Assembly: GCA_043814985.1 (NCBI GenBank)
Contig: JBDRJK010000019.1
Location: forward strand, 32,001 to 96,000
DNA: 64,000 bases
Origin: Candidatus Aenigmatarchaeota archaeon
GTDB taxonomy: Archaea > Aenigmatarchaeota > Aenigmatarchaeia > Aenigmatarchaeales > Aenigmatarchaeaceae
Direction of reading: 5' to 3'
Below the pieces are notes generated by a model. The model searched no databases and was not told the origin of the DNA. It saw nothing but the letters and a program-made list of their open reading frames with translations. Below are positions 52,490-58,250 of the stretch, in pieces. The position numbers were made by a program, and so were the translations under genes. The first letter of the stretch is position 1. Each line of letters starts with the position of its first letter.

Positions 52490-52747
52490 ATGGTCGTCAT
52501 ACTGAAGCTGAACAAAGGAACAGCAGAGAAGCTTTTGGAATTCACTTACATCAAGCCAGAGCAGTCTAGGAATCTCTCAGGCAAGGGACTGACATTGGAA
52601 ATTGATGATAAGGACTTTTTGATAGAAATACACGAAAGGGAAAAGATGATAGAGATAGCGGACTATAATGGAAGCTTCGGGATATGGTTCAAGCTTACAA
52701 AGGAGAAAGTCAAGAAATTGAAGGAAATAGCAAAAATGGGCCCATAA
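52490..52747 (+). CDS. Hypothetical protein between tRNAs
   Basis: 85-aa ORF from ATG 52490; last codons overlap tRNA-Lys. Confidence 0.65.
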   Translation: MVVILKLNKGTAEKLLEFTYIKPEQSRNLSGKGLTLEIDDKDFLIEIHEREKMIEIADYNGSFGIWFKLTKEKVKKLKEIAKMGP

Positions 52748-52859
52748 CTCAGTTGGTAGAGTGCCAGGCTTTTATCTGTTAGATAAAAGCATGTGTAACG
52801 CGAAAGCGTGATGACAGGAAGAAACCTGGAAGTCGTGGGTTCGACCCCCACTGGGCCCA
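52738..52859 (+). tRNA. tRNA-Lys(UUU) with 49-nt intron (52775-52823)
   Basis: GGGCCCA/UGGGCCC acceptor; CCAGG/CCUGG anticodon stem; BHB CUUU/GAAG. Confidence 0.92.
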
Positions 52860-52865
52860 CTTTAT

Positions 52866-52975
52866 GCCGAGATAGCTCAGCCTGGTGGAGCGCCGGTCTC
52901 ATAAAATCATTATGAGATTTGATCCCAAGATGATATGGAATCCGGAGGTCGAGGGTTCAAATCCCTCTCTCGGCA
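52866..52975 (+). tRNA. tRNA-Met(CAU), elongator type, with 36-nt intron (~52904-52939)
   Basis: G1-C72 acceptor GCCGAGA/UCUCGGC; relaxed splice motif (UCAU/AUGG), so a 38/39 position is also possible. Confidence 0.9.
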
Positions 52976-52998: not shown

Positions 52999-53355
52999 AT
53001 GCACTGGAAAGAGAACTTCAAGGAAGGCAAAGAAATAATTCTTTCTACATGCTCCAATTCAGGGGAGCCCAATGCCAACATAGTCATTTCCTTGGGGTTT
53101 GCTGATGAGAAGCTGCTTGTAGCGGACTGCTAGATGACAACCACAATAAAGAACCTGAGGGAAAACAAGAATATCTGCGTGGTCGGTGGCTATTTCAGAA
53201 TAAAGGGAACAGTTGAAATATACGATTCTGGAAAGTACTTTGACGTTTGTTCTGAAATTCTTCGTGGGCAAGATGAAACACTTGAAATGAGGAATGCAAT
53301 CATTATTACTGTTAAAGAAGTTTTTGACTTGGAAAATAATAAGAAAATAATTTAA
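52999..53355 (+). pseudogene. Pyridoxamine-5'-phosphate-oxidase-like FMN-binding protein with in-frame TAG
   Basis: LSTCS..GEPN...LLVADC*MTTTIKNLREN...IKG; TAG at 53131-53133. Confidence 0.78.
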
Positions 53356-58141: not shown

Positions 58142-58250
58142 GGGGTCATAGTCCAACCAGGCCAAGACGGCTGGCTCCAGTCATGGAGCTTTGATTCCGA
58201 AGATGAAAGGAAGAAACCAGCTGATGGGGGTTCAAATCCCTCTGACCCCA
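58142..58250 (+). tRNA. tRNA-Trp(CCA) with 35-nt intron (58181-58215)
   Basis: GGGGUCA/UGACCCC acceptor; GCUGG/CCAGC anticodon stem. Confidence 0.92.

Follow-up and report, generated by a model that had tools for sequence, protein, structure and literature searches.

A free-standing C/D sRNA for tRNA position 34, sR-tMet, is known from Haloferax, and RNAs that guide methylation of the wobble base are among the closest described counterparts of the intron analysed here. Cm34 and Um34 have been reported in several archaeal tRNAs (PMC7668247), and Pyrococcus C/D sRNAs are described, in the accessible part of a review (PMC7994747), as aiming at position 34 of tRNA-Leu(CAA), Leu(UAA), Met and Trp. 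A guide lodged in the intron of its own target is known from euryarchaeal pre-tRNA-Trp (Pyrococcus sR50, Haloferax volcanii; Clouet d'Orval 2001 and Singh 2004, via the accessible parts of PMC7994747 and PMC4090602), and the latter, a 2014 review, calls it a 'unique example' in the text available. The closest published case is the 66-nt intron of elongator tRNA-Met in Nanoarchaeum equitans, a stable RNA of high abundance that has a single box D, a single mutated box C and a 6-bp GC hairpin, and for which a role as C/D sRNA was put forward as a possibility (Randau 2012, Genome Biol 13:R63, PMC3491384, accessible sections). Natural guides as a class are described as bipartite, with a double set of C/D motifs as their hallmark (PMC9670817) and an 'absolutely conserved pseudo-symmetric architecture' (PMC1635284), in the available portions of two studies of guide RNAs. 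Half-mer C/D RNAs with one motif set were active and specific in vitro with L7Ae (PMC9670817, citing Yang 2020), while an earlier in vitro study, whose result tells against the guide reading proposed below, found the hemi-complex active yet non-specific (PMC1635284; both as far as their accessible text goes).

Here, we describe a 36-nt intron in the elongator tRNA-Met gene of an aenigmatarchaeal genome which, judged from sequence features, is probably a naturally occurring half-mer box C'/D' guide that directs 2'-O-methylation to the wobble base, and part of a set serving the purine-ending split-box tRNAs. With the pre-tRNA-Trp guide it shares the location inside the target's own intron, C34 as the methylation target (here predicted) and alternative guide and bulge-helix-bulge (BHB) folds (here modelled); the Trp intron, however, as described in the available text, is about 60 to 105 nt long and has both motif sets and two guides (C34, U39), whereas a single set and a single guide are found here. 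With the N. equitans RNA it has in common that a DPANN elongator tRNA-Met intron carries one C box and one D box. The N. equitans intron is 66 nt with a GC hairpin, compared to 36 nt with a loop in this case, and only tRNA-Met was involved there; the accessible part of that report gives no target, +5 register or covariation (PMC3491384). The target position 34 and an overlapping set of tRNAs are shared with the free-standing Pyrococcus sRNAs, which, as far as their available description goes, are bipartite and have separate genes, unlike the intron-borne half-mer. The engineered half-mer and hemi C/D RNAs likewise have one K-turn, one guide, and the target at position 5, but those in the accessible text of PMC9670817 and PMC1635284 are laboratory constructs, in contrast to a natural intron. 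The original prediction had held that known intron guides carry both motif sets; this is true of the classical pre-tRNA-Trp guide but not of the tRNA-Met intron from N. equitans, with its one C and one D box (PMC3491384, accessible sections). A literature search, whose coverage lay outside subscription journals, returned no account of single-K-turn guides in several tRNA introns.

The window, i.e., the whole stretch of DNA that was analysed, comprises 64,000 nucleotides of a Candidatus Aenigmatarchaeota archaeon (assembly GCA_043814985.1, contig JBDRJK010000019.1, positions 32,001 to 96,000, forward strand), and coordinates given without a contig refer to it (Table 1). The source genome is 808 kb in 21 contigs, with 40% G+C, and 91% complete. 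ARAGORN at default settings overlooked the tRNA-Met gene and, with introns allowed, detected it under a wrong name; the Rfam alignment places a 38-nt insert within its anticodon loop. Because the initiator tRNA, identified by an anticodon stem with three G-C pairs, has its own gene on contig C21, and a tRNA-Ile(UAU) also exists in the genome, this CAU tRNA is most simply the elongator tRNA-Met. Positions 31 and 39 form a U·U mismatch. Since an A flanks both ends, the two possible placements of the intron give the same mature tRNA, and the BHB model described below prefers cuts after 52904 and 52940. Reading the sequence directly, we located all elements of the Met intron named in the original prediction at the coordinates it gave. 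The Rfam search of the introns gave no match to any sRNA or snoRNA family. Folded alone, the Met intron did no better than its shuffles (z -0.61), which counts against the guide reading, and the idea that it forms a stable hairpin by itself was thus unsupported.

Table 1. Coordinates of the tRNA-Met, tRNA-Trp and tRNA-Lys features in the window
Feature	Position	Strand	Basis or remark
tRNA-Lys(UUU) gene	52738-52859	+	intron 52775-52823
Elongator-type tRNA-Met(CAU) gene with intron	52866-52975	+	Rfam tRNA, 56.9 bits, full model 1-71
C34, wobble base, predicted 2'-O-methylation target	52900	+	pairs with G52914
tRNA-Met intron, 36 nt	52904-52939 (52905-52940 equally possible)	+	sequence and Rfam alignment
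Guide, antisense to tRNA positions 30-38	52910-52918	+	9 pairs
Box D'-like UUGA	52919-52922	+	NNGA at the same offset in 21/21 Met introns
Linker (loop of the K-loop)	52923-52929	+	length and sequence variable among relatives
Box C'-like AUGAUAU (R-U-G-A-N5-N6-N7), conserved G52929 just before	52930-52936	+	RUGA downstream of D' in 70/70 introns
Splicing motif, 3' half: H' AUGG (52935-38, pairs with U33-U36) and bulge (52939-41)	52935-52941	+	hand model, evaluated energetically
tRNA-Trp(CCA) gene	58142-58250	+	35-nt intron 58181-58215, same single-guide design
Trp intron elements: guide; UUGA; GAUGA (RUGA)	58183-90; 58191-94; 58202-06 (58203-06)	+	D'+5 = G58186 opposite C34 (58177)

Within the Met intron, UUAUGAGAU (52910-18) lies antisense to G30-A37 and the next A (52896-52904), with eight Watson-Crick pairs and one G·U. 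A central claim of the original prediction, that the fifth nucleotide upstream of UUGA (G52914) pairs with C34, was confirmed both by hand and by script, and the intron thus has the arrangement of a C/D guide, in which an antisense of about 10 nt (here nine pairs) stands directly upstream of D or D' with the target opposite its fifth position. The D'-like box is followed by UCCC (52923-26) and AAGAUGA (52927-33). The sheared pairs of a box C/D kink-turn are made by two GA dinucleotides, one from box C and one from box D, and the next two bases of box C (N5 and N6) face the first two bases of box D; the available description in PMC9670817 is consistent with this scheme. UUGA and (G)AUGAUAU could form a K-turn or K-loop of this type with tandem G·A pairs, judged by sequence and covariation; N6 (A52935) pairs with D'1 (U52919), and N5 (U52934) stands opposite D'2 (U52920) as U·U. 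Counting against a guide, D' is UUGA and not CUGA, and C' fits RUGAUGA at only five of seven positions. Furthermore, a canonical guide has two motif sets (C/D and C'/D') with two spacers of about 12 nt, and the 36-nt intron has one set only; a second RUGAUGA/CUGA pair was found neither within it nor at its ends. We have therefore not filed the intron as a canonical C/D sRNA, and would rather see it as working like a C'/D' half. The full motif test (a minimum of 7 pairs out of 9, an in-register NNGA, an RUGA that follows 2 to 14 nt later, and N6 pairing with D'1) was satisfied by 117 of 200,000 composition-preserving shuffles of the intron, a figure to be read in the knowledge that the test was devised after the motif had been seen and that the comparative evidence is the real control.

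For the comparative analysis, tRNA genes of the source genome and of loci from 41 relatives in its order were collected, giving 186 unique genes. Of these, 125 were at least 88 nt long, and two exceeding 260 nt were dropped; anchoring on the T-loop parsed 109 of the remaining 123 and left 14 unparsed. An intron of at least 25 nt was present in 100 of the parsed genes, 91 of which had an antisense with at least 6 of 7 pairs to positions 31-37, selected by complementarity alone. In 70 of these 91 introns a GA starts 7 bases past the base opposite position 34, which makes position 34 the fifth pair counted from NNGA; no other offset in the range 3 to 13 accounted for more than nine cases. Broken down by anticodon, the register was found in all introns with CAU (21/21, from 13 genera and 4 families), UUG (22/22, 6 families), CCA (12/12) and UCU (10/10), and in 5 of 14 with UUU, while it was absent from CUU (0/4), GUA (0/2), UGU (0/3), UAU (0/1) and two mis-parsed rows (0/2). 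All 70 in-register introns have RUGA downstream. The original prediction had named conservation of the +5 register in relatives as a point on which it could fail; it did hold, in 70 of the 91 introns, although the relatives share ancestry and such comparative figures are not probabilities.

The two boxes also vary together in the manner of a K-turn. N6 and D'1 can form a pair in 56 of the 60 unique motif variants (A-U 34, G-C 17, C-G 3, U-A 1, G·U 1), a number that none of 5000 permutations reached (mean 39.4, max 48), and N5 forms a pair or a U·U with D'2 in 53 (permutation max 52). Rare boxes change in concert, AGGA occurring with GA-CU (in Met and Trp introns of different genomes), GCGA with GA-GC, and GUGA with GA-UC. 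We also assembled a wider Met set across the whole class, in which 85 loci, five of them without tRNA context, yielded 80 unique introns. N6 pairs with D'1 in 72 of the 80 (permutation max 63), and in 73 the guide base that faces position 31 forms a pair with it (G-C 43, A-U 20, U-A 10; permutation max 57). In 34 of the 80 introns, the linker is a terminal stem of at least 3 bp, giving the order D', hairpin, 3 nt, GA of a textbook K-turn; hairpin forms therefore exist among the relatives. NNNNGA and RTGA were already part of the pattern by which this set was pre-selected, and its independent evidence is thus limited to the pairings and stems.

Next to Met, the design was found in the source genome in the tRNAs for Trp, Gln(UUG) and Arg(UCU), and in a tRNA named Arg(UCG) by ARAGORN. 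Neither a second antisense (to position 39) nor terminal C/D boxes were seen in its Met or Trp introns. The gene named Arg(UCG) (contig C5:7452-7567; L060:353-468) is the ortholog of a clear tRNA-Glu(UUC) in five relatives, and we set the Arg reading, which has a C31·A39 mismatch, aside in favour of Glu(UUC) on grounds of orthology, short of proof. The loop reads CUUUCGA in the relatives and CCUUCGA in the source genome, which places a C at position 33, a near-universal U elsewhere. Under Glu numbering, U34 stands at +5 in the source gene and in the orthologs inspected by eye (two of the printed sequences being incomplete); that this tRNA fits only under Glu numbering with C33 weighs against the guide reading. 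No other Glu tRNA and no other Arg(UCG) tRNA was found in the 91%-complete genome. ARAGORN also listed an odd 87-nt tRNA with anticodon CUA (C1:15164-15250), whose anticodon arm was not cleanly parsed.

The Lys introns are a further point against the guide reading, through a D' without GA and a +5 position at C32 or position 30. The tRNA-Lys(UUU) intron of the window has an antisense (52782-91), a CGC-GAAA-GCG hairpin and a perfect GUGAUGA, and its D' is UGUG/UGUA without GA. In the Lys(UUU) introns of genera g11 and g4, UUGA lies 2 nt further on, and +5 falls on C32, not U34. Among the Lys(CUU) introns of relatives, +5 is C32 in L025, L032 and L035 and position 30 in L114; in L035, D' is ACUA, with UA for GA, and the N5 and N6 pairing is retained. 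The leucine introns separate the guide register from the position of the intron: 13 unique Leu(CAA)/Leu(UAA) introns of relatives keep the register, 6 of them lying 5' and 7 lying 3' of the anticodon loop. Since introns on either side keep it, selection appears to maintain the spacing to the K-turn and not the geometry of the splice sites.

The motif is absent from the source-genome introns of Tyr, Ile(UAU), Ile(GAU), Pro(GGG), initiator Met, three Ser tRNAs and Arg(CCU). The carriers are tRNAs for the purine-ending codons of split boxes (AUG, UGG, CAR, GAR, AAR, AGR, UUR), a set that fits the known use of wobble ribose methylation; the Pyrococcus position-34 targets given in the accessible part of PMC7994747 overlap with it. 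Separately, hand parsing assigned three genes at C13:26820-26924, C5:7214-7328 and C13:9999-10102 to Ser(GGA), Ser(GCU) and Arg(CCU), respectively; all three contain a short intron of conserved sequence, GAAAGG-N-CGAAC, which is inserted upstream of the anticodon loop, at position 31/32, and another intron is present in two of them. The tRNA-Ser(UGA) gene (C13:47769-47923) has an intron of about 70 nt with apparent full-size C, D', C' and D-like boxes.

Of 371 genomes of the phylum, 150 (from 96 of 170 genera) contain the Met pattern, compared to 3 genomes for a reversed-pattern control. A scan of genome contigs with the same pattern gave at least 120 rows, with bacterial records in most of the rows listed. 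Among the matches listed, eight archaeal rows were inspected; six are tRNA-Met introns in the half- or full-size form, and two (L188, L198) are not tRNAs. The named records with the motif, again among the matches listed, bear the submitter labels Candidatus Aenigmatarchaeota or Micrarchaeota. In genus g13 of family f2 (L026, L150, L178), the tRNA-Met intron is a full bipartite C/D RNA in the order anti-anticodon stretch, UGAUGA, 12-nt spacer, D', C', second spacer, CUGA.

We also compared the guide fold with a modelled splicing fold. The canonical archaeal BHB consists of two 3-nt bulges, with a 4-bp helix between them, at the splice sites. In a relaxed BHB model, helix H pairs 52899-902 with 52935-38, bulges of 3 nt occupy 52903-05 and 52939-41, and an outer helix h' of 6 bp pairs 52906-11 with 52929-34, leaving U31 and C32 unpaired opposite the 3' bulge. 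The model has an energy of -33.9 kcal/mol as drawn and of -38.9 kcal/mol as constrained MFE, compared to -42.2 kcal/mol (constrained MFE) for the guide fold, in which 52896-52904 pairs with 52910-18, and the unconstrained fold of the pre-tRNA adopts the guide helix. The two folds are, according to these models, mutually exclusive and about equally stable. In relatives, G52938 is an A, and the U33·G pair becomes U33-A. H' lies apart from the antisense, at the 3' end of the intron, and the BHB as modelled can therefore do without the antisense; in the other motif-bearing introns of the genome, H' is likewise separate, beside the 3' splice site. The outer helix does use GAUGAU, and the K-loop and the splicing fold therefore compete. 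This weighs against the guide reading, in that the C' box also provides one strand for the outer helix of the BHB, and its conservation could in part serve splicing.

Profile searches of the source genome identified fibrillarin (265.9 bits), Nop5 (166.2 bits) and L7Ae (60.2 bits), the first two encoded by adjacent genes on contig C5 and the third on C19, outside the window. A lack of fibrillarin and Nop5 would have undermined the original prediction, and both genes are present. Its wider claim, a half-size guide with one K-loop and its own C34 as target, thus gains support from the conservation of +5, the K-turn covariation and the genes for fibrillarin, Nop5 and L7Ae. Nop5 (336 aa) aligns to P. 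furiosus Nop5 across the NTD, the coiled coil and the CTD, which excludes a coiled-coil-less Nop5 acting as a monomeric enzyme; as the coiled coil is present, the enzyme is presumably the usual dimer, and two half-mer RNAs would then have to share one Nop5 dimer. The genome has an RtcB gene and a single gene for the splicing endonuclease EndA (185-aa frame, C1:47369-47650), despite introns at non-canonical positions. Searching the 91%-complete genome for Elp3 (TIGR01211) gave a best score of 29.6 bits against a cut-off of 350, and none was found; such an absence, which is only suggestive, would leave ribose methylation as a main wobble safeguard. A strict scan of the genome for bipartite C/D sRNAs gave two candidates (53101-53158 and C1:81800-81853), compared to 0, 0, 1, 0 and 0 in shuffles, and by this strict scan canonical C/D sRNAs are provisionally few in the genome. 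The first candidate sits inside a reading frame at 52999-53355, of about 119 codons, which has an in-frame TAG at 53131-53133.

Several other explanations of these introns were weighed against guided methylation. The K-turn could be an L7Ae-binding structural module, serving pre-tRNA folding, stability or splicing timing, or the stability of the excised intron, with no methylation guided by it. L7Ae is a K-turn binder in several archaeal RNPs, the models give the two conformers nearly equal energies, and C' shares bases with the outer helix h' and, in several relatives, even with H' (UGAG of AUGAGAG). We nevertheless consider such a module unlikely, as it leaves unexplained why the box is placed such that position 34 forms the fifth pair in every one of the 65 Met, Trp, Arg and Gln introns, why the register holds with the intron on the opposite side of the anticodon, and why the motif is restricted to NNR split boxes, with the introns of Tyr, Ile, Pro, Thr and initiator tRNAs lacking it. 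One could also regard the introns as decaying, no longer functional remnants of a full-size intron-borne C/D sRNA, given the full-size tRNA-Met introns still present in family f2 (genus g13) and the sub-consensus boxes of the source intron. Compensatory changes, however, maintain the K-turn pairs and the position-31 guide pair across genera of the phylum (the pattern being present in the 96 of 170 mentioned above), and the design is retained in up to eight tRNA species, and decay is thus, to our mind, quite improbable.

It is very unlikely, although the excised intron could circulate in a cell that encodes RtcB and EndA and although position 32 or 30 is at +5 in some Lys introns, that the guide works on another substrate or with another outcome, such as on a different RNA in trans or by blocking the anticodon until splicing; the antisense tracks each tRNA's own anticodon (CAU, CCA, UUG, UCU, UUC, CAA, UAA), and the guide covaries with position 31 of the same tRNA. 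Finally, chance alone, by which the antisense would be a mere complement for the BHB and an AT-rich intron would contain UUGA and GAUGA at random, is hardly credible. The motif is short, the genome has 40% G+C, and the shuffles that passed the motif test indicate that single cases can arise, but the register, the covariation, the spread and the Leu comparisons contradict this explanation, and the BHB employs a different complement (52935-38).

Guided methylation of the wobble base, the reading that we favour, would proceed as follows. The 9-nt antisense would pair with the anticodon loop of its own tRNA, in a guide fold that leaves the K-loop free to form; the K-loop of UUGA and GAUGA would bind L7Ae, which would recruit Nop5 and fibrillarin, and the fibrillarin complex would 2'-O-methylate C34, the base that faces the fifth position of the guide, so that elongator tRNA-Met would carry Cm34. 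Then the RNP would depart or the RNA refold, the BHB would form and the intron be excised. Since the guide and splicing folds exclude each other, methylation would have to precede splicing, or the excised intron would act in trans; both cis and trans action are possible, because the guide pairs with exon bases except for the first intron base, an A like position 38. We infer the protein binding, the methylation and this order of events from the features described above. The same design may serve Trp, Gln(UUG), Glu(UUC), Arg(UCU) and some Lys(UUU) tRNAs, and in relatives Leu(CAA) and Leu(UAA); in split boxes, a 2'-O-methylated wobble base restricts misreading. A bolder version, on which we are close to evenly divided but lean toward doubt, is that in Aenigmatarchaeota-like DPANN the tRNA introns make up a full set of single-K-turn guides, each in its own target, placing Nm34 on every purine-ending split-box tRNA (Met, Trp, Gln, Glu, Lys, Arg-AGR, Leu-UUR), in genomes from which Elp3 and nearly all free-standing C/D sRNAs seem to be missing.

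If the guide reading is true, the intron would be a conserved half-mer of natural origin, evidence that a single K-turn with a single guide is enough in cells and that a bipartite guide is not required. A substrate and its guide in a single RNA, with an intron of 36 nt, would also be convenient for structural and mechanistic work on how the box C/D enzyme is positioned. For these archaea, it would offer a reason why tRNA introns persist in reduced genomes, each intron guiding its own tRNA, and would tie intron content to the accuracy with which split codon boxes are decoded.
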